From an uncultured bacterium (GTDB taxonomy: Bacteria > Verrucomicrobiota > Kiritimatiellia > RFP12 > CAIWXQ01), in the NCBI GenBank assembly GCA_903861045.1, contig CAIOST010000353.1:4097-68096 (forward strand): a DNA stretch of 64,000 bases, read 5' to 3'. The notes below the pieces were generated by a model. It was not told the origin of the DNA. It was given only the letters and a program-made list of their open reading frames with translations, and searched no databases. Within the stretch, counting starts at the first letter, position 1. Every line of letters begins with the position of its first letter. This document shows positions 31,269 to 60,125 of the stretch, piece after piece. The translations under genes and the position numbers were made by a program.

Positions 31269-31291
31269 GCCGAAACCTCCTACGTGATAAT

Positions 31292-31307: not shown

Positions 31308-31425
31308 GGTGTCACGCCGCCGCCGCACGACCGCGCCTGCCCGCTCTTGCAAAGATTGCAAAAAAGACAAAAGCAGGCTTGAATCTGCGCCGCCCAAAGA
31401 ACAGAATAGCTAATTACAAACACCA

Positions 31426-32331: not shown

Positions 32332-32363
32332 CCGGAGCGTTGCGGCTCCCGGAGCGTTGCGGT

Positions 32364-33152: not shown

Positions 33153-33156
33153 TTGA

Positions 33157-35862: not shown

Positions 35863-35989
35863 TCTGTCTGTTCCTCTCTTGCCGTCCGAAAGCAGCACTG
35901 GCACAACCAGTCGGGTTGCATCCGGGACACGTACAGAACCCATTGAAGCAACTGTTGACGCTCGGGCGATCAGCCCCTACTCTCTTGGC

Positions 35990-42558: not shown

Positions 42559-45500
42559 ATGGTAACAACAACATCCTTCGCAACCGGGTTGACGTCCATC
42601 CGCAACCACCGCTTGGTCCGCCCTCCATCCTTCTGCCTGCTCGGCCTGTTGACCGCGGCGCTGCTGCTGCCAGGCGCACATCAAGCGCGGGCCGACGAGC
42701 GCAATATCACGGCCGCCTCCTCCCTGATGGATCGCGGACAGTATGGCGATGCCATCAAACTGCTGGAAAAGTCTCTGGAGCAACAGGGCCCGGACAATTC
42801 CACGACCGAATTGCGTCTGATCGGCGAGTGCCAGTTCCTGCTCAAGGACTACGGCAAGGCGCGCACCGCATTTTCCCGCGCCCTAGCCAATGCGGACAGC
42901 CTCTCGCCCAAGGCCCGCATCGTCTGCGAGTCACGTCTGGCCATTATTGACTACCGGCTGGGCGACAAGAAGGGCGCCGATGAACGCATCGAAAACTTCA
43001 TCCGCAAATACCCGAAGGACAGCCGAGTCGGCACCATGGCCGTGATCCGCATCCGGATAACGCAGGAAGACAGCACCATCCCCCTGGCGGAAAAGATTCG
43101 CAAGGTCGAGGAGCAGCACAAGGTCATTGCCGCGGATAAGGAGGCCTTCGGCTATTACAACGCGGTGCTGGCGGCCCAGGCGCTGGGCGACCTGTACATC
43201 GAGAACAAGCAGGAGGATAAGGCGGTCGGGCTGCTGGTCACGGCCGTGCACGAGATGCGCGGCCTGATCACCGAACTCAAAGGGAAAGGCAAGGCCATCC
43301 CGTCCGATCTGGGGCAGGGCGTGGACGGCATGGCGCTGCAGATCGCCCGCTACAACATGTCCCGGAAGGAATGGGGCGAGGCCAAGAAATGGCTGGAGAA
43401 CGTTGACTATGCGGAGGACCTGAAGGCCCAGGCCAAGTACATGCTGGCCCAAATCGCCTACCAGCGGCGGGAGTTCGCCGAGGCGCTCTTCCAGCTCCCC
43501 GACGAGGTCGTGGCGCGCATCGCGGAAGGCGATACCAAGAACGCCATGTACCTGCTGATGGCGTTCTGCTGGCGTGAACCGGCCACCGCCAATGCGGAAA
43601 AGGCCAAGGAGGCCCTCAAAAAGATCCCGCCCGCCTCCTCTTCCTATTGCCAGGCCCAGCAAACCCTGGGTGACATCTACCGCGAACAGAAGGACCACGA
43701 GCGCGCCGAACCGTGCTACCTGAACGCGCTCAATGACAAGGAGAAGCGCTTCGCTGCCGCCGCGCGCTTTGGCCTGGGAGTCGGCTTCTACGAACGCGCC
43801 ACCACCATCCTGCTGATGGGGGCGACGGACGAGATGAAGAAGCAGCGCGAAGCCCTGTGCAAGAAGTCCGCCGAGCACTTCCAGGAGTTGCTCACGAAGT
43901 ACCCCAATACGGACCTGGCCCGGCAGGCCAAGCCCATGATCGAGAAGCTGCAGAACTGGGGGATCATCGTGGTGGTGGAAGCCACGGAGAAGGAGCAGAT
44001 CGCTGCCAAGGAGAAACTGATTGCCGAAAACCCCAACTCCTTCCCGGCGGCACAGGCGATGCTCTGGCTGGCGCAGCTCCATGCCAAGGCCGTGCAGGAC
44101 CCCAAAACCAAGAACCTGCTCAAGGCGCCCAACTGGGAGGCCTGCGCCAAGGCCTGCCTGCCGCTCGTCCAGAGCAAGACACCCTTCGCCAATGTCACGC
44201 CCGAGTGGTGGCGGGACAACCGCTGCATCGCCCTCTTCCTCCTGGCGCGCGCCGAACTCGGCAGCATCCCGCCCGGCGCCAGCGCCCGGCGTCTCCGCCC
44301 CAACCAGGCGGAACCGGTGCGTATCAAGACCGGGGGAAGCGCCGTGCGCGCCCTCCAAAACCTGACCGAGGCCCAGACTCTGGTCACCCCGCAGACCAAT
44401 CCGGACGTCACGCGTAACCTCGAGTTCGCCACGATCGAGGCCATGCTGAAGTCGCCGGACGCCGTCGTGCGCAGCCAGGGCGAGAAACGCTACGCCGCCG
44501 TGGAATCCAAGTACAGCCTCGACCCCGTCTACCAAAAACTGGCCATCATCACCGCCGACTGGCAGGACGAGCAAGGGTTCTACGAGGACGCCGGCCGAAT
44601 CTACCGCAGTGTGGCGCGCAAGGCGACCATGGACCGCGACCAGTCTATCCACCTGCTCCATCTGGCCGGCGCCAGCTACGGCCGCGGCGGGCGCGCCCTG
44701 ATTGAGAAGCGCGAGAAGAACATCACCCTCGGCATCCAGATCCTGCCGCGCATCGTGCTGCGCACCGGCACCACCAACACCCAGGAGGCCCTCTCGGCCT
44801 TAAAGCGCACCAAGCTCATCCCGTGGGAACCGACCGGACCGACCCTTTCGGCTGCGGAGGCCGTCGCGCGCATCTCCCGCGAGTTCAGCGTCCCGCTCGT
44901 CTGGTCGCCGGAAGTCGCGCCGGGCTCCGTCGCCGCGTTCCTCGCGCAGACCACGATCCCGCGCGAAACCGTCGCTTCGTGGCGCCAATCCATGACCTTT
45001 GAGAAAGCCCTATACAACGTCCTTGACCGGAAGGAGTTCTCCGTGGTGGCCGACATCGGCCTGTCCGGCGGCACCCTCACCTTCATTCCTAAGCTGGCCG
45101 AACTCGGTGACACCGACGATCAGGTCCTGGAGATCGTCGCCCGCCAGCGGGAACGCTTTGCGCCGCTGGCGCGGATGTACGGCTCGTTTGCCACCGTACA
45201 CGGCAAGCCGGCCATGATGTTCAACGTAATCAAGCGGGTGGAGGAACTCACCGGCGCCCGGATCATGTGGGGCGAGGGGATCCAGAAGGACGAGGCGCTG
45301 TCGCGCGACTTCCCCTCCTTCCCCGGCGTGGCGCCCGCCAGCAACCTCACGGTGCGCGCCGTGCTGGACAAGACCCTGGAAGCCGTGGGATTGCGCTACG
45401 AGGTCGTCCCCTGCGACCACAGCCGCGAGCTGATCATGGAGTCCATCTCCTGCTTCGACGAACTGCGCAAGTTTGGCGCGGACACCACCTACGCCGAGGA

Positions 45501-47088
45501 CGCGATGTTCAACATCGCCGTCAATCTCTATGTCATCCGGGACTACGCCAAGATGAAGCTCCTGCTGAAGGAGTATCTCAAGACCTACGACAACCCCTCC
45601 TTTGCGCACTATTATGACGCCTGCTACTGGCTGGGGCGCCTATTCGAGATCGAGCGCAACTACCGCGAGGCCCTCAAGTACTACGGCATGGCCGCCGACG
45701 AGAAGATCATCATCTTCCACTCCGACTCCGGCGCCCCCACCCCGACGATCGAGGAACTCAAGGCGCGCCTGAGCTACGATACGCTCTACAACCTCTCCCG
45801 CAAGGGGAACGGCTCGTTCACGGATGCCACGATCGACCGGGAGTTCCTGTCCTTCGTCCGGTTCCACACCAACCTGGAGATCCTCATCGACCCCTCGGCC
45901 AAGGAGTTCGCGCGCTCCATTAACCGCCCCTCGTTCGTCGGCGTCCCCTGCCTCAACCTGATCCACGAGGTGCTGGTGGCCAACGGGCTGGACCTGCGCA
46001 CGGAGAACGGCGACAAGGGCGTGGCCGAGAAGGCCTACTACCGCATGGCCCTGGTCTACAAGGAGGACAACCTGATGCGCGAGGCGCTGGAGAACGTCCA
46101 GACGCTCCTCACCCGCTTCCCCCAAAGCCCCCGGCGCGTGGATGCCCTCTCGCTGAAGCTGGAGATCTACAAGGGGCTGCGTAACTACAGCGAGGTGCTC
46201 AAGACGCTCGAACAGCTCAAGGCCTGCGCCGGCGGCCGGATCGCCCCCTTCCAGCTCGACTACGAGATCGGGCGCGTCTACTTCGACCTGTGCAACTATA
46301 CCAACGCCATGGACAGCTTCGTGCAGTCCATCGGCGGCACGCAGAATCCGCAGGACTGGCTGCCGATCCGCAGCGCCCTGGCCCAGACCTACCTGCGCAT
46401 GCCGGGGCGCGAACCGGACGCGCTCGCCCTCTACCGCCAGAACATCACCCTCGAGACCGCCCCCCTCGCCCAGACCATCAACGCCATGACGATTTACTGG
46501 CTCGAATACGCGCTCCTCCCCGCGCCGCGCACCCGCAAACCGGTCCCGGCGGCCGAGGCCGAGTTCATGACCCTCTATACAAAGGCCTCGGACAGCGAGC
46601 GCGCCGATCTGAGCCAGGGGGATGTGGCCCGCGCCACTTGGATCTATTACCTCCTGGGACGGATGGACCTGGTGGACAGCAACAACGTGGCCGCCCTGGA
46701 GAAGTTTAACGCGGCCGGGTCCTCGCCGGATGCCTACCTCTCCGGCGACGCGCTCTACCAGGCCGCCCTGATCCATGCCGGGCGCGCGGAGTTCGACAAG
46801 ACCCGCGAATGCCTCGAGCACCTCCTCTTCACCACCAAGTCAGTCGAGGCCTCCGTCAAGGGCACCTATGAACTGGCACGCTGCCAGAAAACCCTCGGCA
46901 ACCTCGATGCCGCCTTCCAGCGGTACGACGAACTCGTCACCCGCTACCCGGTCTCGCCGTATGCGGATCTAGTCCGGCAGGAACCGCTCTACCTGCAGCG
47001 CAAACCCGCCGTCCCGCTGCCCCCCGCCGCCACACCCGCAGCCGCCTCGCCGGCCGCCACCAACACCGGAGGAGCCCGCTCCCCATGA
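42559..47088 (+). CDS. giant secreted/anchored TPR-repeat protein (1509 aa) with a non-TPR central insertion
   Basis: N-terminal hydrophobic signal/anchor (FCLLGLLTAALLLPGAHQARA). Numerous TPR-like helical repeats (…YGDAIKLLEKSL..., ...YREALKYYGMAA..., ...LDAAFQRYDELVTRYPVSPYA). Strong GC3 coding signal over the full length. Confidence 0.8.
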   Translation: MVTTTSFATGLTSIRNHRLVRPPSFCLLGLLTAALLLPGAHQARADERNITAASSLMDRGQYGDAIKLLEKSLEQQGPDNSTTELRLIGECQFLLKDYGKARTAFSRALANADSLSPKARIVCESRLAIIDYRLGDKKGADERIENFIRKYPKDSRVGTMAVIRIRITQEDSTIPLAEKIRKVEEQHKVIAADKEAFGYYNAVLAAQALGDLYIENKQEDKAVGLLVTAVHEMRGLITELKGKGKAIPSDLGQGVDGMALQIARYNMSRKEWGEAKKWLENVDYAEDLKAQAKYMLAQIAYQRREFAEALFQLPDEVVARIAEGDTKNAMYLLMAFCWREPATANAEKAKEALKKIPPASSSYCQAQQTLGDIYREQKDHERAEPCYLNALNDKEKRFAAAARFGLGVGFYERATTILLMGATDEMKKQREALCKKSAEHFQELLTKYPNTDLARQAKPMIEKLQNWGIIVVVEATEKEQIAAKEKLIAENPNSFPAAQAMLWLAQLHAKAVQDPKTKNLLKAPNWEACAKACLPLVQSKTPFANVTPEWWRDNRCIALFLLARAELGSIPPGASARRLRPNQAEPVRIKTGGSAVRALQNLTEAQTLVTPQTNPDVTRNLEFATIEAMLKSPDAVVRSQGEKRYAAVESKYSLDPVYQKLAIITADWQDEQGFYEDAGRIYRSVARKATMDRDQSIHLLHLAGASYGRGGRALIEKREKNITLGIQILPRIVLRTGTTNTQEALSALKRTKLIPWEPTGPTLSAAEAVARISREFSVPLVWSPEVAPGSVAAFLAQTTIPRETVASWRQSMTFEKALYNVLDRKEFSVVADIGLSGGTLTFIPKLAELGDTDDQVLEIVARQRERFAPLARMYGSFATVHGKPAMMFNVIKRVEELTGARIMWGEGIQKDEALSRDFPSFPGVAPASNLTVRAVLDKTLEAVGLRYEVVPCDHSRELIMESISCFDELRKFGADTTYAEDAMFNIAVNLYVIRDYAKMKLLLKEYLKTYDNPSFAHYYDACYWLGRLFEIERNYREALKYYGMAADEKIIIFHSDSGAPTPTIEELKARLSYDTLYNLSRKGNGSFTDATIDREFLSFVRFHTNLEILIDPSAKEFARSINRPSFVGVPCLNLIHEVLVANGLDLRTENGDKGVAEKAYYRMALVYKEDNLMREALENVQTLLTRFPQSPRRVDALSLKLEIYKGLRNYSEVLKTLEQLKACAGGRIAPFQLDYEIGRVYFDLCNYTNAMDSFVQSIGGTQNPQDWLPIRSALAQTYLRMPGREPDALALYRQNITLETAPLAQTINAMTIYWLEYALLPAPRTRKPVPAAEAEFMTLYTKASDSERADLSQGDVARATWIYYLLGRMDLVDSNNVAALEKFNAAGSSPDAYLSGDALYQAALIHAGRAEFDKTRECLEHLLFTTKSVEASVKGTYELARCQKTLGNLDAAFQRYDELVTRYPVSPYADLVRQEPLYLQRKPAVPLPPAATPAAASPAATNTGGARSP

Positions 47089-50000
47089 ACATGCCGTCCT
47101 TCTTCCCACGCCCCTGGCTGGCCGTCGTGCTACTGGCGGCCCTCCCGCTGGCCGCCTATGCCGTCTCGCCGGAGGAACTGGTCAGCGCCGCCGAAAGCGC
47201 CGAGAAAGCCGGCGCGCTCACGCAGGCCGCCGACCTCTATAAGCAATTCCTCGCTGAAAACAAGGAGCACATCCAGCGCTCCCTGGTGCTCTACCGCCTC
47301 TCCCTGGTGCAGGAGAACCAGGGGCTGTCGGAAGATTCCATGGCCAGCCTGAAGCAGTCCGTCGCCATCCCCGCCGACAAGAACGGCGAGAAGCACCGCC
47401 CCGACGCCTACATGCGCCTGGCCAAGCTGCAGGCCCACAACAACCGGTACGCTGAGGCCGCCGACACCCTGCAACTCCTCTTCAAGGAGGGCGCCGCCTT
47501 GTACGAGGACGAGGCTCAGAACCTCCGCGCCGGCTACCTGACCCTCATGGGTAAGTATGACGAAGCCGCCATCCTGTTCAACATCCTGCGCAACAAGGCC
47601 AACTCAATCTACGCCAAGGAGGCCGCCTACAAGATGGCGATTGTCTGGCTGAAGGCCGGCAACGCTGAGATGGCCAAGAACGCCATTGAGGAGTTCGCCC
47701 AGCGCTACCCCACCCACCCGAAGGTGGTGGAGCTCTTCGTGAGCATGGCCCGCAGCTATTTCGAGAAAAAGGACTACAAGAACGCCGCTGAACTCTCCCG
47801 CCAGGTGATCGCCGACTACAAGGAAACCCCGGAGGCCATGGAAGCCGCCCTCATCGTGGCCCTCTGCTACCGCGAAGCCAACAAGCTGGAACTCGCCGTG
47901 GACCGGCTTGAGGATGTTTCGCGCATGCCGCAGGCCGCACGCAACGCCGAAATGGTCAGCGAGTCGCTCTTCGAGGCTGCCCAGATCTGCCGCAAATCGC
48001 TAACCAATAAGATGGAACGGGCGATCGACCTCTACACCCGTGCCGCCTCCGTCGCGCGCATCAACCCGTCGGAACGCCAGGTCCTGATCCTCGAGCAGAG
48101 CCTCTATTACGCCGCCGAATACTTCTACCAGCGCGAGCAGTGGAGCTCCGCCTACGACCTCTATGCCCAGTTGCGCGCTATGAAGAGCAGGCTGAACCTG
48201 ACGAGCCGGATCATGCAGTGCAAGGCCAAGATGAGCGCCGACGGCAAGGCCGGTCTGGAGGTTGATAACGAGGATGACTTAGCCCACATCCGCAAGCAGA
48301 TCGCCGACAACCCCGGTGCGCTCATCGCCCTGCAGTATGAACTCCTGCTGCTCGACAAAAAGGTCCAGAAGACGTTCGCCTCCGTCTCCGACCGGCAGGG
48401 CATCGGCTGGGGCGCCGTGCAGATCCTGATTGACGAGTACAACGAACTCCTCAAGAAATACCCGGGCGACGTGCTCAACCAGGAAGAGATGCGCCCCGTG
48501 TTGCGCCTGCGCATGGGCAACCTCTACGCCTATGCCCAACCCTCCGACCCCGCCCGCACCTCCAAGCTCAAGACCGGGATCGAACTGATCGAGCAATCGC
48601 TGCAGGAGGCCCCCCAGGCGCTGTTCCGCGTGGAAGCGCTGCAGTCCCTGGCCTTCCTCTACGCCAACAGCGCCGAGAACAAGAAGGCCTTCGAGACCCA
48701 GAAGAAACTCCTGGAACTCACCGGCCAGGACCCGACCAGCTCGCAGCGGACCGCCCCGGAACTCCTGCGCCAGATGATGCCACTCATCCGGAGCGACGAC
48801 CTGACCGATGACGCGATCGCAACCATGCAGCAAGTCGTCGCCAAGGGCCCCGAGAACGGCCCGGAGGTGCGCCAAGCGCGTTTTAATCTCGCGGAACTCG
48901 CCTTCATGAAGAAGCGCTACCAGGAATCTATCAAGCTCTACAAGGAGTTCATCAAGCGCTACGGCCCTCCGCAGGACCCGGACGGCCGCGTCTCCGCATT
49001 ATGGAAGAAGCCCGCAGGCGTGGATGAAGTGCTGGACCAGGTCTACGAATGCGGCTACCGCGTGGTGCAATGCTGGCGCGCCTCGACCCAACCCTACGGC
49101 AGCAACGCGCTGGCCGCCTGCACGTGGATGATCGAAAACCAGAACTACCTGAACCCACGCATCCCGGAAGTGCTCTATTATGTCATTGATCGCGGCGAGA
49201 ACCCGGCCAAACTCCCGAACGACAAGAAGGACGAACTGGCCCGCGCCTTCTGGACGCGCATGGTCAACCCCTCCCTCGACTTCGGCTCCAAGGCCTTCAA
49301 GGCGGGGTTCTACGGCTGGATGCACGACGGACGGGCCGCTCCCTTCGTGCGCGTGGCCCTCATGAAGGCGGCCCAGCTCTCCGCCGAGATCAACAAGCAC
49401 CAGCGCGCCGCTGAGATGTACCAGAGTTTCGTAGAGATCTACGCCCCGGAGAACCCCAAGCTCCGCAACGCCGACGGCTTCCCCCTCTTCCCCCGCGACG
49501 ACATGTACTACATGGCATCCTACGCCCTCGGACGCGAACTGGTGCTCGACAAGAACTTCGTGTCGATGGTGAAGGCCTTCAACATCTACGTGGATGACAT
49601 GCGGGAATCGAAGTTCCGGGCCGCCGCCCTGCAGCTGATGGGGCACTATGGCACGCAGGCCGAACTGTTCAACGAAGCCGCAGAGGCCTATGCCGCCCTG
49701 CTGGACGAATACTCGCCCGCCGTCACCAACACCGCCGCGACCGTCACGAACATCGCCAGCCGCGTCTACCTCAAGCCGGAGCAGCGCCTGCGCAAGAATA
49801 GCAAATGGGATGGCTACCGCATGCCGCTCCCGGACAAGATCGACATCGGCGATGTCCGCTACGGGCTCGGCCTCCTCTACTGGAAGAAGGAACAATGGCC
49901 CCTGTGCATCACCGCCCTGCAGCCCTTCCTCATCGATCCGATCCTGGCGAGGTCCCCCAGCCGCGCGGAGGCCCTGTTCATGCTGGGACGCTGCCAGATG

Positions 50001-50582
50001 AAGACGGGTCTGTTCACCGCCGGCCAGCTCACCATGGAGCGCAGCCTCAAGGACCACCCCGACTACAAGGCCGCCGAGGAGATCTACCTGGACCTGATCC
50101 GCTCCCACGTCGACACCGCCAACTGGCCGGCCGTGACCCGCACCTACCAGGACTACCTTGTCCGGAACAAGGAAGGGCGCTACCGGTCGCACATGGACCT
50201 CTACCAGGCCGTGTCCCAGCTCAACGGCACGAACGAGGCGACCGGGGAGCGAACCCTGATCGACCTCTCCAAGGCCGAGACGTTTGAGGACGTCAAGGCC
50301 GAGGCCTACTACCGCCTCGCAGTGCGCAAACTGGGCGAGAAGACCCCACCCGACCAGGAGGGTGCCCTCCCCCTGCTGCGCAAAAGCATCGCGGCGTATC
50401 CGCTGGCACCGGCGCTGATGGAGGCCGCGCGCTGCGCCAAGGGGACCAAGAACTTTGCCGCAGCACGGGAATTCCTGGACCAGTTGGTCCGGCAGTTCCC
50501 CAAGGCGGATCAAACCCTGATCGACCAGGTGCAGCAACTGCGCCGGCAGATCCAGATCGCAGAGATGGAGGCGCGGCGCTAG
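47085..50582 (+). CDS. giant secreted TPR-repeat protein (1165 aa)
   Basis: Signal peptide (WLAVVLLAALPLAAYA) and TPR-like repeats throughout (…ALTQAADLYKQFL..., ...KDYKNAAELSRQVIADYKETPEA...). ATGA overlap with the upstream TPR gene. Confidence 0.8.
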   Translation: MNMPSFFPRPWLAVVLLAALPLAAYAVSPEELVSAAESAEKAGALTQAADLYKQFLAENKEHIQRSLVLYRLSLVQENQGLSEDSMASLKQSVAIPADKNGEKHRPDAYMRLAKLQAHNNRYAEAADTLQLLFKEGAALYEDEAQNLRAGYLTLMGKYDEAAILFNILRNKANSIYAKEAAYKMAIVWLKAGNAEMAKNAIEEFAQRYPTHPKVVELFVSMARSYFEKKDYKNAAELSRQVIADYKETPEAMEAALIVALCYREANKLELAVDRLEDVSRMPQAARNAEMVSESLFEAAQICRKSLTNKMERAIDLYTRAASVARINPSERQVLILEQSLYYAAEYFYQREQWSSAYDLYAQLRAMKSRLNLTSRIMQCKAKMSADGKAGLEVDNEDDLAHIRKQIADNPGALIALQYELLLLDKKVQKTFASVSDRQGIGWGAVQILIDEYNELLKKYPGDVLNQEEMRPVLRLRMGNLYAYAQPSDPARTSKLKTGIELIEQSLQEAPQALFRVEALQSLAFLYANSAENKKAFETQKKLLELTGQDPTSSQRTAPELLRQMMPLIRSDDLTDDAIATMQQVVAKGPENGPEVRQARFNLAELAFMKKRYQESIKLYKEFIKRYGPPQDPDGRVSALWKKPAGVDEVLDQVYECGYRVVQCWRASTQPYGSNALAACTWMIENQNYLNPRIPEVLYYVIDRGENPAKLPNDKKDELARAFWTRMVNPSLDFGSKAFKAGFYGWMHDGRAAPFVRVALMKAAQLSAEINKHQRAAEMYQSFVEIYAPENPKLRNADGFPLFPRDDMYYMASYALGRELVLDKNFVSMVKAFNIYVDDMRESKFRAAALQLMGHYGTQAELFNEAAEAYAALLDEYSPAVTNTAATVTNIASRVYLKPEQRLRKNSKWDGYRMPLPDKIDIGDVRYGLGLLYWKKEQWPLCITALQPFLIDPILARSPSRAEALFMLGRCQMKTGLFTAGQLTMERSLKDHPDYKAAEEIYLDLIRSHVDTANWPAVTRTYQDYLVRNKEGRYRSHMDLYQAVSQLNGTNEATGERTLIDLSKAETFEDVKAEAYYRLAVRKLGEKTPPDQEGALPLLRKSIAAYPLAPALMEAARCAKGTKNFAAAREFLDQLVRQFPKADQTLIDQVQQLRRQIQIAEMEARR

Positions 50583-50666
50583 CCCGCCACGCAAAAACAA
50601 TCACCGGACGGACCACACGCTTTGTGGCGGATGGTCCGGCTGAAAAGGAAAAAGGAGAATAGAGGC

Positions 50667-51806
50667 ATGAAGGTGCGATTCATCACGACAGCAGTAATCT
50701 GGGCGGCCACCCTCGCGGCTGCCGCCACCCTGCAGGCACAAACCCCGGCCGCCGGCAAAGCCGCCGCCACGCCCGCCCTCAAGGACGCCAAGGAAGTCGC
50801 CCTGGACGACTCCTTGCCCGGCGTCACCAAGAATGACTTGGCCGACGGCGCCAAGGAGAACGTGGAAGCCCTGCTGAAAGGCGAAGGAGGCGAAAAGACC
50901 GGCGACGGGAAACTCTTCACGATCAAGACCGACGACAACATCAAAACCCTGAGCGTCGGCGACCTCTACAAGAACGAGGAGACCGCCTTCAAGGTCACGG
51001 CCATCCCCCGGCAGAGCGACAAGGGGGGCCTCTTCACGGTCACACGCATCGCCGGCCAGAGCGACCCCCAGCGCCGCTGGACCAAGGTCGCCGGCAACGG
51101 CCCGCAACAGATCATCACCCGCACCACCCTGCTGGACCTCTACATCCAGGGCGGCCCATTCCTACACCCCATCGCCCTGCTCTTCGTCATCATGGTAATC
51201 CTGAGCATCAACGGCTGCCTGGTCTACCGCCGCAAGACCCAGTGCGCCCCCGAGTTCGTCAGCGCCAGCGAAGCAGCCCTGCGCCAGGGCGACCTGAAGA
51301 AGTTCGAGGACCTCGCCCGCACCAACCGCGGGTTGCTCCCCTTCATCTGCCGGCACATGATCCTGGACCATGAGACCTCCAGCATTGCCGACATCCGCAG
51401 CCGCGTCGAGGTCGCCACCATGGTCCACATCAACCGCCTGCGCATCCCGATCCGCGCTATGAACCTGATCGCCGTGGCCGCCCCGCTGCTCGGCCTGCTC
51501 GGCACCATCGTCGGCATGGTGCTCGTCTTCGAGGGCGTGGCCGGTACCAGCGGCGCGGCCAAGGCCTCGATCCTCGCGGCCGGTATCCGCGTGAAGCTCT
51601 TCTCCACGGCCTCAGCCCTCATGGTCGCCATCCCGGCCCTCTTCATCTATTTTATCTTTAACCAGAAACTGGGCGTGATCATCCACGAGTGCGAACTGAT
51701 CCACGAACGGTTCCTGACCCTGCTGGCCCAGCGCCGGCGCGCCACCGGCACGGCGGAGAACAAGCACGGGGCGGTTTCGCAACGCCGGGACGCCGACGAA
51801 GAATAA
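50667..51806 (+). CDS. MotA/TolQ/ExbB proton-channel family protein with signal peptide and N-terminal periplasmic extension
   Basis: The C-terminal half has three TM segments and the family signature ...NLIAVAAPLLGLLGTIVGMVLVFEGV... The N-terminus is MKVRFITTAVIWAATLAAAATLQAQ plus about 140 extra residues. GGAG SD. Confidence 0.85.
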   Translation: MKVRFITTAVIWAATLAAAATLQAQTPAAGKAAATPALKDAKEVALDDSLPGVTKNDLADGAKENVEALLKGEGGEKTGDGKLFTIKTDDNIKTLSVGDLYKNEETAFKVTAIPRQSDKGGLFTVTRIAGQSDPQRRWTKVAGNGPQQIITRTTLLDLYIQGGPFLHPIALLFVIMVILSINGCLVYRRKTQCAPEFVSASEAALRQGDLKKFEDLARTNRGLLPFICRHMILDHETSSIADIRSRVEVATMVHINRLRIPIRAMNLIAVAAPLLGLLGTIVGMVLVFEGVAGTSGAAKASILAAGIRVKLFSTASALMVAIPALFIYFIFNQKLGVIIHECELIHERFLTLLAQRRRATGTAENKHGAVSQRRDADEE

Positions 51807-51872: not shown

Positions 51873-52301
51873 ATGGGCTTTCAACACGAAGCCGAAGAAG
51901 TCATGCACATTGACATGACGCCCATGGTGGACGCCATCTTCGCCATCATCCTCTTCCTGCTGGTCACCTCGTCCTACCTCGAATCCCTGGAGCAGGACGT
52001 TAACATCGCCCTCCCCAGCATGGGCACGAAGATCAAGGTGGTCAAGATCCCGGCGCGCCCCATCACCGTCAACGTGCGCTACCTGCCCGGTGGCAACGCC
52101 TACTACCATGTGGAAAACCAGAAGCTGACGCTCACCATGCTGACCATCAACATGACCCGCGCCCGGGTCCGTGACGTAGATCAATCCGTCGTGATCCGCG
52201 GCGACAAGGACGTCAAGTGGGACCACATCGCCAAGGTGATGGGATGCTGCGCCCAGGCCGGCATCACCAAGGTGTCCGCCAGTCTGCAAGTGAATGAATA
52301 G
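51873..52301 (+). CDS. ExbD/TolR-family biopolymer transport protein
   Basis: 142 aa. IDMTPMVDAIFAIILFLLV contains the conserved TM aspartate. The periplasmic domain has ...VVIRGDKDVKWDHIAKVMGCCAQAGI... Confidence 0.85.
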   Translation: MGFQHEAEEVMHIDMTPMVDAIFAIILFLLVTSSYLESLEQDVNIALPSMGTKIKVVKIPARPITVNVRYLPGGNAYYHVENQKLTLTMLTINMTRARVRDVDQSVVIRGDKDVKWDHIAKVMGCCAQAGITKVSASLQVNE

Positions 52302-52313: not shown

Positions 52314-54074
52314 ATGAACCAAGGGCCACAAAACGGGGCGCAGCGGCCGCTGTCGGGCATGATCGAGCACGACTCGATGTTCGACAAGCGGTCGATCCTG
52401 ATCGGCATCGGCCTCGCCGCGCTCGTGCTGACCACGGCAACCGTCTGGAAGGTTGCCTATCACGACCACTCCAAGAAACTGGACAAAATAAAGGATATGG
52501 TGTTTGAGCCCAAAGAACCGCCCAAGGAGAAAGTCGAGGTCAAGCCCCCCCAGCAAACCCTCATTCGCCAAGAACTGCCCGACCGTCCGGAGATGACCGA
52601 AAAGGAGGCCGAGACGCCCAACATCCAGATGACCACCGTTATCAAGGATGTGGCCGCCCCGGAAGAGGTGGTCAAAAGTACGACCATGGACGTGCAGGAC
52701 GTCAAGATTGATTTCGAAAAACTGGACATCAAAGAACCCATGGACAAGGCCGATGAGACCGCGGCGGTCAAGGAGGAGGCCTTGACGCCCATCGCCGTGC
52801 TCACAGAGGCGGCCGCCGACATCTACGCCTACAAGGAGCCCAACCCCACGGCCAAGGCGGACGCCGGACTCTTCAGCAAAGCCCCACGGCCGGGGTCCAA
52901 GACCACTGTGAAGTTGGGCGCAATCGGCCCCCAAAACGCCGACACCATCGGCGAACTCGGCCCCATGGACATCAACCTCTTCGGCACCGGCAACTCCCTC
53001 TCCGGCATGAAGCGCGCCGGATTCGAAACCCAGACCGCCGTGGACGCAGCGCTGCGCTGGCTGGCGCTGCACCAAGAGCCGGATGGACACTGGGATGCCC
53101 GTCGCTGGGATGCGGAGAGCGCCCCTTTTGACAGCTCAAATGCCACCGCCAAAGCCACCGCAAGCATCCAGAAAAACGATGGCGCGGCGACCGCCCTGGC
53201 CACGCTGGCCCTGATGGGCGGCGGCAATACCCTGCGCAAGGGCGAGTATCGCGACAACGTGCGCCGTGCGGTGCAACACTTAATCGGCGTCCAGAACACC
53301 AAGACCGGCTTCTTCAGCGAGAACATGTACGAGCATGCCATCGCCACCATTGCCATCTGCGAAGCCTTCGGCCGCGCTCCGGACGAGAAGGTCGGCCTGG
53401 CTGCCCGCAAGGCCGTGGACGCCTGCGTCAGCTCCCCCGGCAAGGACGGCGGCTGGCGCTACGCCCCCAACCCGCCCTCCAGCGACATCTCCGTAACGAG
53501 CTGGTTCCTACAGGCCCTAAAGACCGCCAAGCTCTCCAACATCAAGTTCGATCATGCGGTCTTCTCCCGCGGCGTCACCTACCTCGATCAAGTCACGCAC
53601 AACGGCGCCATGGGCAACTCCAGCGGCGCCGTGGGGTACGAATACAACCCCTCGCTGGATTATGGCAACGAAACCCCGGCCCTGACCTGCGCCGGCATGG
53701 TCATCCGGCAGTTCAACGGCATGGGTGTCAACCACCCCCTGCTGAAGAGCGCGGCGGAGATCACCAAAACCAAGCCGCCCGCCTGGAAGGAGAAGGACTT
53801 CTACCGCTGGTATTACGCCACCTATGCCATGCACAACATGGGGGGTGAATACCGCCTCTGGTGGAACAGCCGAATGCGCGAACTCCTGCTGAACAACCAG
53901 TCCAAGCAAGGCCATCAGAAAGGGAGCTGGAACCCAGAGCGCGAAAAGTGGATGCAGTCGCGCGTCATGACCACCTCCATCGGCGCGCTCTGCCTGGAAG
54001 TCTATTACCGCTACGGCGAAGCCCTCCAGAGCTTCGGCACCGTCCCGGAACTCGATGAACTGATATTCCAATAG
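52314..54074 (+). CDS. TonB-position membrane-anchored protein: TM anchor, Pro/Lys/Glu-rich spacer, C-terminal prenyltransferase/squalene-cyclase-like alpha/alpha-toroid domain
   Basis: Single TM (SILIGIGLAALVLTTATVW) and spacer EPKEPPKEKVEVKPPQQ...PDRPEMTEKEAETP. The C-terminal ~340 aa carry repeats such as ALRWLALHQEPDGHWD, VQHLIGVQNTKTGFF, GKDGGWRY, SWFLQALK and LEVYYRY. No TonB C-terminal-like segment was recognised. Starts 12 nt after the exbD-like stop. Confidence 0.7.
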   Translation: MNQGPQNGAQRPLSGMIEHDSMFDKRSILIGIGLAALVLTTATVWKVAYHDHSKKLDKIKDMVFEPKEPPKEKVEVKPPQQTLIRQELPDRPEMTEKEAETPNIQMTTVIKDVAAPEEVVKSTTMDVQDVKIDFEKLDIKEPMDKADETAAVKEEALTPIAVLTEAAADIYAYKEPNPTAKADAGLFSKAPRPGSKTTVKLGAIGPQNADTIGELGPMDINLFGTGNSLSGMKRAGFETQTAVDAALRWLALHQEPDGHWDARRWDAESAPFDSSNATAKATASIQKNDGAATALATLALMGGGNTLRKGEYRDNVRRAVQHLIGVQNTKTGFFSENMYEHAIATIAICEAFGRAPDEKVGLAARKAVDACVSSPGKDGGWRYAPNPPSSDISVTSWFLQALKTAKLSNIKFDHAVFSRGVTYLDQVTHNGAMGNSSGAVGYEYNPSLDYGNETPALTCAGMVIRQFNGMGVNHPLLKSAAEITKTKPPAWKEKDFYRWYYATYAMHNMGGEYRLWWNSRMRELLLNNQSKQGHQKGSWNPEREKWMQSRVMTTSIGALCLEVYYRYGEALQSFGTVPELDELIFQ

Positions 54075-54346: not shown

Positions 54347-54955
54347 TTGCGCCCTGCTGTGCTGTGTTACCTCGCCGCCGCCCAGACGTCCACCGTCCCG
54401 GTCGCGGCACAACCCGCGGCTCCGGCCGCCAAGGAGACCCCTATGACCATCGTGATCGAAACCACCCACGGCAATATCACCGCCGAACTCTATGCCGACA
54501 AAGCCCCGCTCTCGGTCAGCAACTTCCTCGCCTACGTGGATGCCAAGTTCTACGACGGCACGATCTTCCATCGTGTGATCAAGGGGTTCATGCTCCAGGG
54601 CGGCGGCTTCACCACCCAGATGAAACAGAAGGCCACGCAGGCTCCCGTCAAGAACGAAGCCGATAACGGGCTCACGAACGACCGCGGCACGCTGGCCATG
54701 GCCCGTACCATGGTCGTGGATAGCGCCACAGCCCAGTTCTTCATCAATCACAAGGACAATGGTTTCCTGAACCACACCGCCAAGAACGCCCAAGGCTACG
54801 GCTACGCCGTGTTCGGCAAGGTCACCGAAGGCATGGACATCGTGGACAAGATCGCGGCCGTGGAGACGGCCACGGCCGGCTCATTCCAGAACGTGCCGAC
54901 CACACCGGTCGAGATCAAGTGCATCCGCCGCCAGGCCGCCGCCCCGGCGAAGTAA
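54347..54955 (+). CDS. cyclophilin-type peptidyl-prolyl cis-trans isomerase (probably exported)
   Basis: [21 protein letters not shown] and SATAQFFIN motifs. The start is uncertain: a TTG at 54347 gives a short signal-like [14 protein letters not shown], and an ATG at 54333 lies in another frame. Confidence 0.85.
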
Positions 54956-55117: not shown

Positions 55118-56953
55118 ATGTCAGCTACGCCCAAGCACCAGTACGACGAAAGCAAGATTCAAACGCTCTCCGCTGTCGAGCATATCCGCAAGCGCACCGG
55201 CATGTACATTGGCCGCACCGGCGATGGCAGCCAGTATGAGGATGGCATCTACATCCTCCTCAAGGAAGTCCTCGACAATGCCGTGGACGAGTTCATCATG
55301 GGGCACGGCAAGAAGGTGGAGATCCAGGTGGACTTCAACACCGGGGCCGTCAGCATCCGCGACTATGGTCGCGGCATCCCCCTCGGCAAAGTCGTGGAGT
55401 GCGTATCCAAGATCAACACCGGCGCCAAGTACAATGACGAGGTTTTCCAGTTCAGCGTCGGCCTGAACGGCGTGGGCACCAAGGCCGTCAACGCCCTGGC
55501 TACCAGTTTCTTTGTGCGCGCCCACCGCGAGGGCGAGTTCGCTGAGGCCCTCTTCGCCTGTGGCGAACTACAGAAGGAGAAACGTGGTAAGTGCCCCAAC
55601 GAACGGGACGGCACCTTGGTGCAGTTCACGCCGGACGAAGCGATCTTTCCCAAATACCGGTTTCACGAAGAGCACATTCTGCGGCGTATGCGCATGTACG
55701 CCTACCTCAACGCCGGCCTGACGCTCCAGTTCAACGGCACGGCGATCGTCTCCGAAAACGGACTGCTCGACCTGATCCACGACGAAGCTCAGTTTGAAAA
55801 AATCTATCAACCGTTCCACTACCGCTCCAAGACCCTCGAAATCGCCTTCACCCACACCAACCGCTTCAGCGAGGATTACTACTCCTTCGTCAACGGACAG
55901 TTCACGAACGATGGCGGCACGCACCTGAGCGCTTTCAAGGAAGGGCTTGTCAAAGCCGTCAACGAGTTCAACAAGGGCGCAAAGTTAGAAGGCGATGACG
56001 TCCGCGAAGGGCTCATCGGCGCCGTGGCCATCCGCCTGAAAGACCCGATCTTTGAGTCGCAAACCAAGAACAAACTGGGCAACCAGGAAATCCGATCCGA
56101 CTTGGTGTCCGAAATCAAGCGCGTGATCGAGGAGATGCTCCACCGCGACCCGCAAGAGGCCGCCAAGCTCCTCGCCAAGATCGAAGAGACCAGCAAGCTG
56201 CGCGCCGAACTCAATTCCGTCAAGAAGCTCGCCCGCGAACGCTCCAAGTCCGTCACCATCCGCGTCCCCCAACTCAAGGATTGCAAGCAACACCTCAAAA
56301 AGCTGCAGGGGACCGGCCTCGACACGATGATCTTCATCACCGAGGGGCAGTCCGCCGCCGGTTCCATCGTCAGTTGCCGCGATGTGGCCAAGCAGGCTAT
56401 CTTCACGCTCAAAGGCAAACCGCTGAACGTCTGCGATTGCAAGCGCGACGCCCTCTACCGGAACATTGAAATCTACAATCTGATGTGCAGCCTCGATATC
56501 GAGCAGAGCGTCGACAACCTGCGCTACCAGAAGGTGATCCTCGCCACGGATGCGGACGTGGACGGTTTGCACATTCGCAATCTGATGATCACCCTGTTTC
56601 TGCGCTATTTTGAGCGTGTCGTGAAGGAAGGGCACCTCCACCTCCTGGAAACCCCCCTGTTCCGCGTGCGCAACAAGAAGGAAACCATCTACTGCTACGA
56701 CGAGGCTGAGCGCAACGTCGCCATCGGCCGCCTCGGCAAGGGGCACGAAATCACCCGCTTCAAAGGACTGGGGGAAATCTCCCCCAAGGAGTTCGAAGCG
56801 TTCATCGGCGACAGCATGCGCCTGACGCCCGTGGACATGACGCAGGATTACGGCGTACCCGAAACAATCGAATTCTACATGGGCCGTAATACGCCGGAAC
56901 GGCGGCAGTACATCATGGACAATCTGGTCATCAGCGAGGAAGTACTGTCGTGA
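55118..56953 (+). CDS. parE: type IIA DNA topoisomerase subunit B (short, topoisomerase IV ParE-like)
   Basis: AVEHIRKRTGMYIG, EVLDNAVDE, GLNGVG, TLKGKPLNV and ILATDADVDGLHI (Toprim). The short 611-aa length favours a topo IV-like enzyme over gyrase. Confidence 0.75.
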   Translation: MSATPKHQYDESKIQTLSAVEHIRKRTGMYIGRTGDGSQYEDGIYILLKEVLDNAVDEFIMGHGKKVEIQVDFNTGAVSIRDYGRGIPLGKVVECVSKINTGAKYNDEVFQFSVGLNGVGTKAVNALATSFFVRAHREGEFAEALFACGELQKEKRGKCPNERDGTLVQFTPDEAIFPKYRFHEEHILRRMRMYAYLNAGLTLQFNGTAIVSENGLLDLIHDEAQFEKIYQPFHYRSKTLEIAFTHTNRFSEDYYSFVNGQFTNDGGTHLSAFKEGLVKAVNEFNKGAKLEGDDVREGLIGAVAIRLKDPIFESQTKNKLGNQEIRSDLVSEIKRVIEEMLHRDPQEAAKLLAKIEETSKLRAELNSVKKLARERSKSVTIRVPQLKDCKQHLKKLQGTGLDTMIFITEGQSAAGSIVSCRDVAKQAIFTLKGKPLNVCDCKRDALYRNIEIYNLMCSLDIEQSVDNLRYQKVILATDADVDGLHIRNLMITLFLRYFERVVKEGHLHLLETPLFRVRNKKETIYCYDEAERNVAIGRLGKGHEITRFKGLGEISPKEFEAFIGDSMRLTPVDMTQDYGVPETIEFYMGRNTPERRQYIMDNLVISEEVLS

Positions 56954-59187
56954 GCAAGCCCCAGCGCAAAGCATCCACACCGCCACCCCACGCGGCCGCC
57001 GGCCCGGCGGCGCACGAGCACCAGGACCTGCCACCCGTGCAGGTCACACAAGACCTGCTGTTCGACCTGAACACGCTCCCCGCGGAACGAGCCGCCGCCA
57101 AAGCGGGCCAGCCAGACGCCCGCGCCTCAGCCGAGGAGCCGTTGCTCCCCACCGACCCGTCGGCCCCCATCTCCGACCACCTAGCCGTGACGCACGCCGC
57201 GCACACCGACCCCTCCTCCGAGCATTTCGTGCACCCCAGCGAACGCGGCCCGCTCGGTCGTCTGCTGGACAGCAACTTCCTGCAGTTTGCCTCGTATACG
57301 ATTTGTCACCGCGCCATCCCCACCGTCGAAGACGGTCTCAAGCCCGTGCAGCGGCGCATCCTGCACTCCCTGTACGAGAAGGATGACGGGCGATTCATCA
57401 AGGTCGCCAGCGTCGTTGGTCACGCCATGCAGTACCATCCGCATGGCGACCAGTCCATTGCCGACGCCATCGTCAACCTCACCAACAAGCGCTACCTGAT
57501 CGAGGGGCAGGGAAACTTCGGCAACATTCACACCGGCGACCCGGCCGCCGCCTCGCGATACATCGAATGCCGGCTGACCGAGTTGGCGCGCCACGAGCTG
57601 TTCAACCCCAAGACCACGCGCTATACCAAGAGCTACGATGGCCGTAACGAGGAACCGCTGCTGCTCCCCAGCAAGTTACCCCTGCTACTGATGCTAGGGG
57701 CGGAGGGCATTGCCGTCGGCCTCTCCACCGCCATGCTGCCGCACAACTTTATCGAACTGCTGGAGGCGCAGATCGCCATCATCCAGAAGAAGCCGTTTCA
57801 GGTGTTACCGGACTTCCAGACCGGCGGGCAGATGGACGTGCGCGAATACACGGATGGCCACGGACGCATCAAAGTCCGCGCCAAGATCGCCCCCCGCCAG
57901 AACAATCGCCTCATCATCACCGAACTCCCCTTTGGCCAGACCACCGAAGCGCTGGTGGAATCCATTGAAGAAGCCATCCGCAAGAAGAAGGTGCCGGTCC
58001 GGCAGATCAACGATTTCACCGCCGAGAACGTGGAGATCGAACTGATCCTCACGGCCGGCGCACCGCAGGAATCGGCCACCAAGGCGCTCTTCGCCTTTAC
58101 CAACTGCGAAGTTTCGGTCAGCAGCCGGCCGGTGGTCCTGTTCGAAAACCGCCCGCGCGAAATGCCGGTCTCCGAGATCCTGAAAGCCAACACCGCACAA
58201 CTGCTCGTGCTGCTGCAACGGGAGCTCGAAATCCGCCAGGGCGAACTGCAGGAGGAGTTCCACCATAAGACGCTGGAACGCATCTTTATTGAAGAACGCA
58301 TCTACAAACGCATCGAAGAGTGCCGCACCTACGAACTGGTGCAGCAGGCCGTAATCGAAGGGTTTGTGCCGTTCCGCAAACGCCTGCGCCGCGACGTCAC
58401 CCACGAGGATGTCGCCAAGTTGATCCAGATCCCGATCCGCCGCATATCCCTCTACGACATCAACAAGAACCGCGAGGAGATCGAGAACATCCTCAAAGAA
58501 CTGGCCGAGGTCGAAGAGAACCTCACGTCGCTGCGCGCCTATGCCGTCAAATACCTGAAGAATCTGATCAAGAAATACAAAGACCAGTACCCCCGCCGCA
58601 CCGGCATCGTCACCTTCGGCGAGATCGAGATCCGCTCTCTCACGGCCACAGAACTGACACTGAAAATCGACCGGGAAAACGGGTACATCGGCCACGACAT
58701 TCGCAACGCCGAAGCGCTCTTCCAGTGTTCATCCCTCGATAAGATCATCGTCTGCTGGGAGGATGGCCGCTATAAGGTCATGCCCCCGCCTGACAAGTTC
58801 TTCGTGGACAAGAACATGCGCTACTGCGCCATCTTCGACCGCGACCGGCAGATGACCTGTGTCTACACGCAGAAAGATCACGGTTTCTCCTACGTGAAAC
58901 GGTTCACCTTCGGCGGTGCCATTCAGAACAAGGAGTACCGTCTCGCGCCCGAGAACTGCGAGTTACTGTTGCTACAGGAAGGGACGCCGGAAACCCTCTA
59001 CCTCAAGTATCGGCCTGCCAAATCACAGCGTATCAACCAGCAGGCTTTCACCCCCTCGGAAGTGATGGTCAAGGGTGTGGCCTCCCGCGGTATCCAGATG
59101 ACCTCCAAGGCGATCGCCAAGATCGACACCCAGAAACCGCGCTGGTGGGAGAACGACGCCGAGTCGCCGAGAGGCGTGCTGCTCTAG
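56950..59187 (+). CDS. parC: type IIA DNA topoisomerase subunit A (ParC-like) with a ~100-aa Pro/Ala-rich N-terminal extension
   Basis: AIPTVEDGLKPVQRRILH, YHPHGDQSIADAIV, GQGNFGN and AAASRYIECRL (catalytic Tyr). The GTG start overlaps the parE stop. The true start could be further downstream. Confidence 0.75.
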   Translation: MSKPQRKASTPPPHAAAGPAAHEHQDLPPVQVTQDLLFDLNTLPAERAAAKAGQPDARASAEEPLLPTDPSAPISDHLAVTHAAHTDPSSEHFVHPSERGPLGRLLDSNFLQFASYTICHRAIPTVEDGLKPVQRRILHSLYEKDDGRFIKVASVVGHAMQYHPHGDQSIADAIVNLTNKRYLIEGQGNFGNIHTGDPAAASRYIECRLTELARHELFNPKTTRYTKSYDGRNEEPLLLPSKLPLLLMLGAEGIAVGLSTAMLPHNFIELLEAQIAIIQKKPFQVLPDFQTGGQMDVREYTDGHGRIKVRAKIAPRQNNRLIITELPFGQTTEALVESIEEAIRKKKVPVRQINDFTAENVEIELILTAGAPQESATKALFAFTNCEVSVSSRPVVLFENRPREMPVSEILKANTAQLLVLLQRELEIRQGELQEEFHHKTLERIFIEERIYKRIEECRTYELVQQAVIEGFVPFRKRLRRDVTHEDVAKLIQIPIRRISLYDINKNREEIENILKELAEVEENLTSLRAYAVKYLKNLIKKYKDQYPRRTGIVTFGEIEIRSLTATELTLKIDRENGYIGHDIRNAEALFQCSSLDKIIVCWEDGRYKVMPPPDKFFVDKNMRYCAIFDRDRQMTCVYTQKDHGFSYVKRFTFGGAIQNKEYRLAPENCELLLLQEGTPETLYLKYRPAKSQRINQQAFTPSEVMVKGVASRGIQMTSKAIAKIDTQKPRWWENDAESPRGVLL

Positions 59188-59191: not shown

Positions 59192-60085
59192 TCAGGGCGA
59201 CATGCCCAAGCGTTTCTCCAGCATCGCATCCCGTGGGATCCCCAACCGGCGGGCATGCTGATAGTACGCTTCGGCGTCGGCCCGTTTCTCCGGCGTCATC
59301 TCCAGCAGCAGATAGGCCATATTGATATGCGCCTGCGGCAGCTCCGGATGCGCCTTCAACACCTTGTCCAGGGCCAGCAGCGCATCGAAGTAACGACCGG
59401 CACCACAATACGCGCCGGCCGCCAGCAACAGCACGGCCTCATCCTCCTCCGCGTCGCGCACCCCTTCGATGGTCACAATGGCATCATCATACCGCCCCTG
59501 CTGCACCCGCACCGTCGCCATCAGCAGCAGCGCCCGACGATTCGTGGGCTCCGCCCGGAGCACCTTAATCAACGATGGTACCGCCTCCGCCGGATGATCG
59601 CCCGTGATGAAGCGCTGCGCAATCGCCAGCTCCCGACGCACATCCACCGGTTCCTCCAGCATGGCCATGCGCGCCTCAGCCTGCGACGGTGTCGGCACCT
59701 CGCGCTCGCGGGCCAGCCCCGTGGGGTGTGTGATCGCCACAGGCCCCTCCGGCTTGGCCTTCTCCCGCGCGACATTCTGAATCTGCTCCACCTGACTGGC
59801 GCAATACGAGAGGCGGAAGCGCACCAGACCGTTCTGCAGGTTGGGGCTGAGTTGCTCGGCCTGCCGGTACTGCTCCGCGGCCGCCTGGTAATACTGGGCG
59901 GCCTTACCCATGTCGCCGGCACGCCAGACTTCGTCCCCGGCCTGCACCTGGGCATTCGCCTGGCTAGCCAGTTTCTCGGCTTTCGCTGTGTCGGTCTCAT
60001 TAAAAGGCCAGACCGCCTGCACCGCCGGCGTCACGCCAAGCAAGAGCGCCACCAACAGCATGCCACGCAGGAAGCGGATTGACAT
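59192..60085 (-). CDS. secreted TPR-repeat protein
   Basis: Start set at MSIRFLRGMLLVALLLGVTPAVQA (signal peptide). TPR-like repeats follow (…GRYDDAIVTIEGV..., ...GRYFDALLALDKVLKAHPELPQAHINMAYLL...). Confidence 0.7.
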   Translation of the reverse strand: MSIRFLRGMLLVALLLGVTPAVQAVWPFNETDTAKAEKLASQANAQVQAGDEVWRAGDMGKAAQYYQAAAEQYRQAEQLSPNLQNGLVRFRLSYCASQVEQIQNVAREKAKPEGPVAITHPTGLAREREVPTPSQAEARMAMLEEPVDVRRELAIAQRFITGDHPAEAVPSLIKVLRAEPTNRRALLLMATVRVQQGRYDDAIVTIEGVRDAEEDEAVLLLAAGAYCGAGRYFDALLALDKVLKAHPELPQAHINMAYLLLEMTPEKRADAEAYYQHARRLGIPRDAMLEKRLGMSP

Positions 60086-60125
60086 AAAGAGCTCCGGTCT
60101 GGTCGCGACTCCAGCCTGCCGGTTT

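Follow-up and report, generated by a model that had tools for sequence, protein, structure and literature searches.

The 5:2 motors of the ExbBD/TolQR type act via TonB or TolA. Both transducers are docked onto ExbB/TolQ by the SHLS motif (S-x3-H-x6-L-x3-S), the core of which is S-x3-H (PMC12204202, PMC12905483), and TonB carries a D-box, a Pro-flanked stretch with the pattern ΦζΦζΦΦζ (PMC10907165). Transducers whose head is of the von Willebrand factor A (vWA) type have also been proposed, in which a transmembrane helix and a disordered linker lead to a head that is not TonB-like; their genes follow TPR-tolQ-tolR genes in the Planctomycetota-Verrucomicrobiota-Chlamydiota (PVC) group, in Bacteroidetes and in Proteobacteria (Williams-Jones et al. 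2025, PMC12204202). Here we analysed a 64,000-nucleotide stretch from an uncultured bacterium of the Kiritimatiellia (assembly GCA_903861045.1, contig CAIOST010000353.1, positions 4,097 to 68,096), hereafter the window, and focused on a gene at 52314..54074 on the forward strand (the target), which encodes a 586-aa protein made of an anchor, a linker and an α/α toroid. Our preferred reading, which we hold with slightly more belief than doubt, is that the target takes the TonB/TolA position in a five-gene PVC envelope module, as a non-canonical force transducer with a binding toroid for a head. The target probably represents a new type of periplasmic force transducer.

In the window, the module consists of five genes on the forward strand: TPR1 (42559..47088), coding for a secreted tetratricopeptide repeat (TPR) protein of 1509 aa; TPR2 (47085..50582), coding for a secreted all-alpha TPR solenoid of 1165 aa; an ExbB/TolQ-like motor subunit of 394 aa with a signal peptide (50622..51806); an ExbD/TolR-like motor subunit of 142 aa (51873..52301); and the target. 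TPR1 and TPR2 overlap by 4 nt and the following gaps are of 39, 66 and 12 nt, the last one (GAAGGGCGCACC) separating the exbD stop at 52301 from the target ATG at 52314. The initial annotation of the window had reported this ORF (open reading frame) as starting 12 nt after exbD, which is correct: the gene directly upstream codes for ExbD (PF02472) and the one before for a MotA_ExbB protein, and all the peptides quoted in that annotation are present in the 586-aa translation. The GC content at third codon positions (GC3) of the target ORF is 0.83, on par with adjoining genes. Scanning 41.8-55.2 kb for promoters and terminators gave scores no better than those of shuffled sequence.

By searching 5.8 billion proteins we found 245 homologues of the target, about 95 of them full-length (E<1e-130, 41-82% identity). 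They all come from metagenome-assembled genomes (MAGs) of Verrucomicrobiota, Planctomycetota and Lentisphaerae or from metagenomes and, where they have a name, it is either 'terpene cyclase/mutase family' or 'prenyltransferase/squalene oxidase repeat' protein. We also scanned 185,579 species-representative genomes and obtained 67 related loci, all labelled as PVC-group or unclassified 'bacterium' MAGs, whose ORFs were searched with the window proteins and with hidden Markov models built from the matches. First, exbD lies directly upstream of the target on the same strand in 40 of the 45 assessable orthologue loci according to our script, and in 42 when two frameshifted assemblies (L047 and L055) are counted; a rearranged contig (L051) is among the five script misses. 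Second, the full set of TPR (~1500 aa), TPR (~1165 aa), ExbB-like, ExbD-like and toroid genes was present in 24 of the 25 loci whose upstream flank measured 9 kb or more, and in L013 and L022 the TPR pair is placed after, not before. Third, four phylum-level lineages share one fixed order, exbB-exbD-target, and the module occurs in Verrucomicrobiota, Kiritimatiellia, Lentisphaerae, Planctomycetota, Phycisphaerae and a Kuenenia-labelled MAG. The initial annotation had argued for functional coupling to the motor from the neighbourhood, and homologues occurring mostly without ExbBD would have spoken against it; with exbD present at 42 of 45 loci, the argument is strengthened.

The module also varies in copy number and content. 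Several MAGs have two complete paralogous modules (L003/L027, L004/L028 and L036/L050), one from clade A, which includes the window, and one from the larger clade B, which includes most other loci. In L068 (182-11664), the usual TPR-TPR-ExbB-ExbD genes are followed by an FHA-toroid gene. In L006 (1918-18218) and L070 (1522-15493), the motor and FHA-toroid genes are preceded by genes for a secretin, an ATPase of the type II secretion system (T2SS)/type IV pilus type (T2SSE + MshEN) and a MORN-repeat protein, and downstream comes a giant ORF, of 2152 aa in L006, for which Pfam gave no match. These variants hint at phospho-regulation and at a secretin-linked version of the module.

Regarding the anchor, hydropathy shows a sole hydrophobic peak in the target at aa 26-48. 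It corresponds to a single transmembrane helix at 52386..52454 (+, aa 25-47), modelled by AlphaFold2 (AF2) as a helix spanning aa 25-52 and including the segment SILIGIGLAALVLTTATVW (aa 27-45) quoted in the initial annotation. In a subset of homologues an FHA domain lies N-terminal of this helix, and because such fusions place the N-terminus in the cytoplasm, the topology is N-in with the toroid outside. Where relatives have S-x3-H, the target helix has A/S27-x3-G31, with Gly31 found in 74 of 75 orthologues; this A/S-x3-G may pack at the same ExbB site as S-x3-H. We found no match of the target to TonB_C or TolA at E≤0.1 in Pfam and NCBIfam, a TonB_C domain being the detection that the initial annotation had named beforehand as evidence against its proposal. 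Pfam likewise gave no match for the N-terminal ~150 aa of the target or of the S-x3-H paralogues. With neither a TonB_C domain nor the SHLS His, membership in canonical TonB or TolA is ruled out.

The toroid superfamily around the target is large. A profile search of 1.84 billion representatives retrieved 16,733 proteins at E≤1e-3, of which 6,520 reach E≤1e-30. The architecture of the target is seldom found in full length (about ten clusters at 50% identity); the toroid, however, is very common at the C-terminus of proteins of 500-600 aa and of giants of 1,000-2,800 aa. We examined a sample of 164 relatives. Hydropathy shows a transmembrane helix in 132 of them, and 78 of these 132 have S-x3-H within it, typically in the form WW.(I/V)S...HG.LL, against a single one for the reversed control H-x3-S. 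These are TonB/TolA-type anchors. Many relatives also have E/P-rich, TonB-like linkers (e.g. EIEPEIEPDTVEPEIVEP in P0111 and EIPEEIPIEEIPLEPLPLEPPEMPEVEEPDVP in P0119) and, soon past the helix, an alternating strand (VRVHLADG, VQVTLEDG, IRVRIVED or TFQIKILSESE) that fits the definition of the D-box or motor box (PMC10907165). Separate paralogue lineages lie directly behind exbB-exbD (L061, L063, L064, L066 and L073), and the paralogue of L074 is 1.3 kb from a TPR-exbB-exbD-exbD cluster. The L072 locus (4442-13677) has at least three toroid paralogues, with genes for a sigma factor of the extracytoplasmic function (ECF) type and a cyclophilin peptidyl-prolyl isomerase (PPIase) directly upstream. 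The superfamily as a whole looks like TonB/TolA N-terminal modules with a toroid head, and the window subfamily like a derived branch in which the S-x3-H hub was replaced by a small-x3-small A/S-x3-G and which is served by a dedicated motor whose ExbB is extended. The TonB-like anchor of the initial annotation is thus supported by the topology and by the superfamily relatives, and not by the target's own helix, which lacks S-x3-H.

Between the helix and the toroid lies a charged linker of about 180 residues at 52470..53012 (+, aa 53-233). It is predicted to be disordered, with a pLDDT below 50 over most of aa 57-233 in the AF2 model. The initial annotation had described a charged Pro-rich spacer (EPKEPPKEKVEVKPP...AETP, aa 65-102) followed by an acidic linker of ~150 aa. 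We could confirm that the linker is present, charged and disordered; however, it is only modestly Pro-rich (14.6% in aa 53-100 and 9.4% over aa 53-233), and it is not featureless, since several islands are kept across phyla (ERPDIQ.TT, EVV.T, AL.PIAA....PADIFKY..P.P, N.APRPG and FGDQDAP..G.LGP.NINLFGTGD). Close to the membrane, at 52488..52511 (+, aa 59-66), the conserved stretch IKDMVFEP (family consensus L-x-E-F-E-F) is located 12-18 residues past the helix and followed by Pro. At positions 62 and 64, at least 90% of homologues have Phe (M62 and F64 in the window protein), and a second alternating stretch, EKVEVKPP, is found at aa 72-79. The AF2 monomer model shows no strand at aa 59-66. By its pattern and its position, which resemble those of the D-box, we propose this stretch as a candidate motor box.

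At the other end of the protein, the toroid is followed by a conserved acidic/hydrophobic tail at 54024..54071 (+; LQSFGTVPELDELIFQ, consensus SFG.APDLDELFFQ-COOH), modelled as disordered (pLDDT ~40). The tail is restricted to module-linked orthologues and gone from distant paralogues, and it is plausibly a docking peptide for the co-conserved TPR solenoids.

The head itself (53013..54023, +, aa 234-570) is a single-domain α/α toroid with QW-like repeats. The initial annotation had recognized it from repeats at aa 246-261, 315-327, 376-383, 396-403, 499-507 and 561-567 and had suggested modelling it with AlphaFold; in the AF2 model, built with 91 homologues, 12 main helices form one α/α toroid over aa ~235-570 with a pLDDT mostly above 90. 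The only Pfam match above cutoff is SQHop_cyclase_C (PF13243; aa 222-340, 5.2e-8, 32.7 bits for a cutoff of 26.1). TED_complement (PF07678) remains sub-threshold (E 0.076, 12.5 bits for a cutoff of 22), and among PDB sequences squalene-hopene cyclase (SHC) 2sqc matches at 1.8e-5 (target aa 220-333, SHC residues 491-591). The full-length cyclase models score far below their cutoffs (32.6 bits vs 322.7 for TIGR01787, and 25.4 vs 431.1 for TIGR01507). Using regular expressions, we found no D.DD, D.D[DE], DD..D, DD...D, NSE/DTE-like or C.EQ motif in the target. The lack of DxDD and DDxxD noted in the initial annotation is therefore real, and extends to the thioester motif. A terpene cyclase or prenyltransferase enzyme is ruled out by the missing DxDD, DDxxD and NSE/DTE motifs, the tiny full-length scores and the periplasmic location, and a domain of the thioester-containing type (TED) is ruled out by the absence of C.EQ and the sub-cutoff PF07678 score.

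Foldseek returned only generic (α/α)6 barrels for the toroid: GH76, AprG, the small single-domain myxobacterial SHC 8pak, MstE and the C3 TED, with TM(target) ~0.64, E-values no better than 2e-5 and at most 17% identity. The top match, GH76 6y8f (E 2.3e-5, TM(target) 0.64), shares 11% identity, and the target has no Pfam match to a glycoside hydrolase (GH) family or to vWA. Foldseek thus gave no close structural relative in the PDB, and because its matches are generic, the fold does not settle the function of the toroid. The toroid recurs in transmembrane Ser/Thr kinases, where it makes up the extracytoplasmic part (P0187, with the kinase at 59-300, a transmembrane helix at 400-418 and toroids beyond; P0210 is similar); it is also found, often as tandem copies, in giants with PD40 (TolB-like) β-propellers (P0187, P0210, P0192 and P0207 being representatives of the kinase and propeller cases). 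This reuse, together with the lack of a catalytic motif, speaks for a head that binds a ligand or a partner over one that acts as an enzyme, and lends weight to the binding module suggested in the initial annotation. Several of the strongly conserved polar or aromatic residues, which lie mostly in the toroid, appear, from the helix pattern rather than from coordinates, to sit at the N-termini of inner helices and in QW-like loops (E350, W381-R382-Y383, D391, S393, W397, K403, R465, Y497, W499-Y501, R550, E562 and R566), a placement that would suit a specific pocket.

Some of our observations weigh against a force transducer. First, the S-x3-H hub is absent: not one of 75 orthologues has a His in the core of the helix, and Gly stands in its place. 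Second, about 39 polar or aromatic residues are conserved at 90% or more, mostly in the toroid, which would suit an enzyme active site as well. Third, the motor is not always nearby. Many superfamily members are unlinked to exbBD (e.g. L071 and L072; tonB itself is often unlinked to exbBD), and two loci, L009 and L052, have no motor neighbours; in either case the same MAG contains another, canonical copy. Fourth, the module is sporadic, with 95 pattern matches among the 185,579 species genomes, nearly all in MAGs, and no outer-membrane partner or load of the module was identified.

Several of these points would be explained if the target were a membrane-tethered periplasmic enzyme or sensor, e.g. 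for a glycan or an isoprenoid lipid, co-transcribed with the motor genes without being driven by them and using its transmembrane helix as a signal anchor. The missing SHLS His, the conserved polar and aromatic residues and the many toroid paralogues outside exbBD contexts all go in this direction, as do the sensor role of the toroid in kinases and the carbohydrate-active nature of the best Foldseek matches (GH76, AprG and MmpH). However, these matches stay at or below 17% identity and the toroid has no known catalytic motif. Moreover, a plain anchor would need neither the conserved membrane-proximal strand nor the linker islands, S-x3-H anchors are the norm in the superfamily, and the exbB-exbD-target order does not change over four phylum-level lineages. 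We therefore judge a tethered enzyme or sensor unlikely.

The other proteins of the module bear on the kind of motor involved. The ExbB-like subunit matches MotA_ExbB (7.4e-19, aa 251-357) and TolQ (8.4e-16), as well as TolQ (5e-8) and ExbB (1.9e-6) in the PDB, and its gene probably starts at the ATG at 50664 (MKVRF...). Its two transmembrane Thr, along with positions of its N-terminal domain, are conserved in 40 orthologues. This N-terminal periplasmic domain (aa ~93-165), apparently β-rich, is not in E. coli ExbB/TolQ; the linker islands or the TPR proteins are possible contacts for it. The ExbD-like subunit matches PF02472 (3.4e-18) and TolR (2.5e-13), and its transmembrane Asp (D20, in TPMVD) shows a conservation of 95% or more among 43 orthologues; the motor residues are thus intact. 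Both subunits score slightly better against TolQ/TolR than against ExbB/ExbD, so that the motor named ExbB/ExbD in the initial annotation, which rightly had ExbD upstream of the target, is at least as TolQ/TolR-like. As for the TPR proteins, both have a signal peptide readable from the sequence and match tol_pal_ybgF just under cutoff (1e-24 and 87.4 bits vs 90.1 for TPR2), TPR1 combining TPR Pfam matches with YbgF/BamD-like NCBIfam ones. TPR2 matches YbgF 2xev in the PDB (8e-5) and is modelled by AF2 as one continuous all-helical solenoid (mean pLDDT 86.6), for which Foldseek finds giant TPR scaffolds, including, as a generic match, the periplasmic scaffold of the Campylobacter flagellar motor (9hmf). 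None of the five module proteins matches a PADLOC model, which rules out an anti-phage defence system, e.g. one with Zorya-type motors.

These similarities raise the idea of a divergent Tol-like system, with TolQ-TolR, a TolA substitute and CpoB/YbgF-like TPR proteins serving outer-membrane stabilisation or constriction and not transport. It agrees with the best scores of the motor subunits, with the near-cutoff tol_pal_ybgF matches of both TPR proteins and the 2xev match of TPR2, and with the name 'TolA-binding protein' that one source gives to a TPR2 homologue. On the other hand, we found no TolB or Pal in or next to the module, either in the window or in the sampled loci (in the window, a TonB-dependent receptor and a canonical TonB are likewise missing in and beside it), and the target has no TolA domain III. 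Furthermore, the module is rare among PVC genomes and a MAG often has two paralogous copies of it, which would be unusual for a core division system, so that we give this idea little credence. A chance adjacency or a spurious ORF, for which only the general caveat that MAG loci can be chimeric (as L051) could be raised, is effectively refuted by a GC3 like that of the neighbours, the 245 homologues with ~95 full-length, and the conserved synteny, and has practically no chance of being right.

Taking the target as a force transducer, the module would most likely work as follows. The transmembrane helix would pack against the outside of the ExbB-like pentamer, and the membrane-proximal strand would be caught by the periplasmic dimer of the ExbD-like subunit. 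Proton flow through pentamer and dimer would then pull or turn the stalk, whose ~180 residues would carry the pull to the toroid head. The head would bind the load and pass the work to a component of the envelope, and the TPR solenoids would be a scaffold or an adaptor that possibly holds the C-terminal tail. In this picture, the architecture, the fold, the lack of catalytic motifs, the synteny, the intact motor residues and the TonB/TolA-type anchors of the superfamily come from our computations, and we infer the physical coupling to the motor, the direction of the force, the contact between tail and TPR and the load.

In many PVC bacteria, intact polysaccharides enter the periplasm by routes other than SusCD-type transporters. 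We put forward, as a long shot, that the module is an envelope machine driven by the proton motive force without a TonB-dependent transporter, in which the toroid would grip a macromolecule, most plausibly a glycan, and the TPR proteins would bridge to the outer membrane, giving PVC bacteria an energised uptake. Thousands of toroid proteins with an S-x3-H anchor would then make up a third major class of periplasmic force transducers, next to TonB/TolA and the vWA type. The five genes make a sharply defined unit. If the transducer reading is true, thousands of misleading annotations would be corrected, the TonB/TolA N-terminal module would be a portable motor adaptor, and the question of how processes at or near the outer membrane are energised in PVC bacteria would become accessible.

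Besides the module, the window has several other recognizable genes. Directly downstream of the target lies a cyclophilin PPIase gene (54347-54955); as a conserved partner it is ruled out, with no PPIase match in the 67 related loci. It is followed by a pair of genes for type IIA topoisomerase subunits B and A (55118-59187, +), the A subunit having a Pro/Ala-rich N-terminal extension of ~120 aa, and by a gene for a further TPR protein of 379 aa (59192-60331, -), 5 kb past the module. On the other side, the region 26865-35943 (mostly -), about 15 kb upstream, encodes a σ54-dependent response regulator, a T2SS-F platform, a T2SS-E/MshEN ATPase, an MshEN protein (31426-32331, +) and a CHASE4 hybrid histidine kinase, and resembles a unit of the type IV pilus or T2SS-like kind that comes with regulators of its own. 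A cluster coding for BamA (Omp85/POTRA), Skp/OmpH and LpxD at 8288-12384 (-) indicates a conventional outer membrane containing lipopolysaccharide. Finally, a 417-aa ORF at 5476-6729 (-) has a nucleoside-diphosphate-kinase domain in two stretches near its C-terminus (best at aa 339-398) after a long unmatched N-terminus, and may be a mis-called start or a fusion.

How does the target compare with known systems? Like TonB and TolA, it comes directly after exbB/tolQ-exbD/tolR and combines a single N-in transmembrane helix, a long disordered stalk and a globular C-terminal head; it also has a candidate strand motif soon past the helix, and relatives with S-x3-H and E/P-rich linkers. In contrast to them, its head is an α/α toroid of ~340 aa instead of the ~90-aa TonB_C or TolA-III fold, its subfamily has A/S-x3-G and not S-x3-H, and its stalk, with ~9% Pro, contains conserved islands; no TonB-box partner is known. 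With SHC and other class II terpene cyclases, and with the β subunits of protein prenyltransferases, the target shares the α/α toroid with QW-like repeats. However, it has a single, periplasmic toroid without DxDD or DDxxD, and the similarity covers only ~110 residues of repeat; the public 'terpene cyclase/mutase family' annotations are thus probably misleading for this family. The TED of C3 and α2-macroglobulin is likewise a single α/α toroid acting as a binding module, with weak Pfam and Foldseek matches to the target, which lacks its CGEQ.

Periplasmic TPR proteins are also found with MotAB/TolQR-type motors in other 5:2 systems, i.e. the PflA/PflB ring of Campylobacter (9hmf) and CpoB/YbgF of Tol-Pal. 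Those of the module are of 1165 and 1509 aa, and the matches reflect generic TPR similarity, making this a functional analogy. In Akkermansia muciniphila, mul1A is Amuc_0544, a 'mucin transport' gene in PMC12570417, and Amuc_0546 is called a 'biopolymer transporter' in PMC11480725. These labels would fit a TPR-TPR-ExbB-ExbD-X order, which makes a tentative link between the MUL1 locus and the module; MUL1 synteny is absent from aquatic Akkermansiaceae (PMC13174399). No Akkermansia isolate protein was among the matches of our searches with the module proteins, and we found no text linking MUL to ExbB or TonB.

The closest published concept is that of the vWA-headed transducers, which have the same succession of transmembrane helix, linker and head and the same TPR-tolQ/tolR gene context in PVC bacteria. 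Heads of the toroid, cyclase or prenyl type are not mentioned in the paper describing them (PMC12204202), and we found no description of a toroid-headed transducer in the searchable literature. The system reported here differs from the vWA type by its toroid head, by a single tolR/exbD gene instead of a heterologous pair, and by its two giant TPR genes. The α/α toroid would thus be a second alternative head after the vWA type proposed in 2025, and apparently a much larger one, in PVC bacteria.

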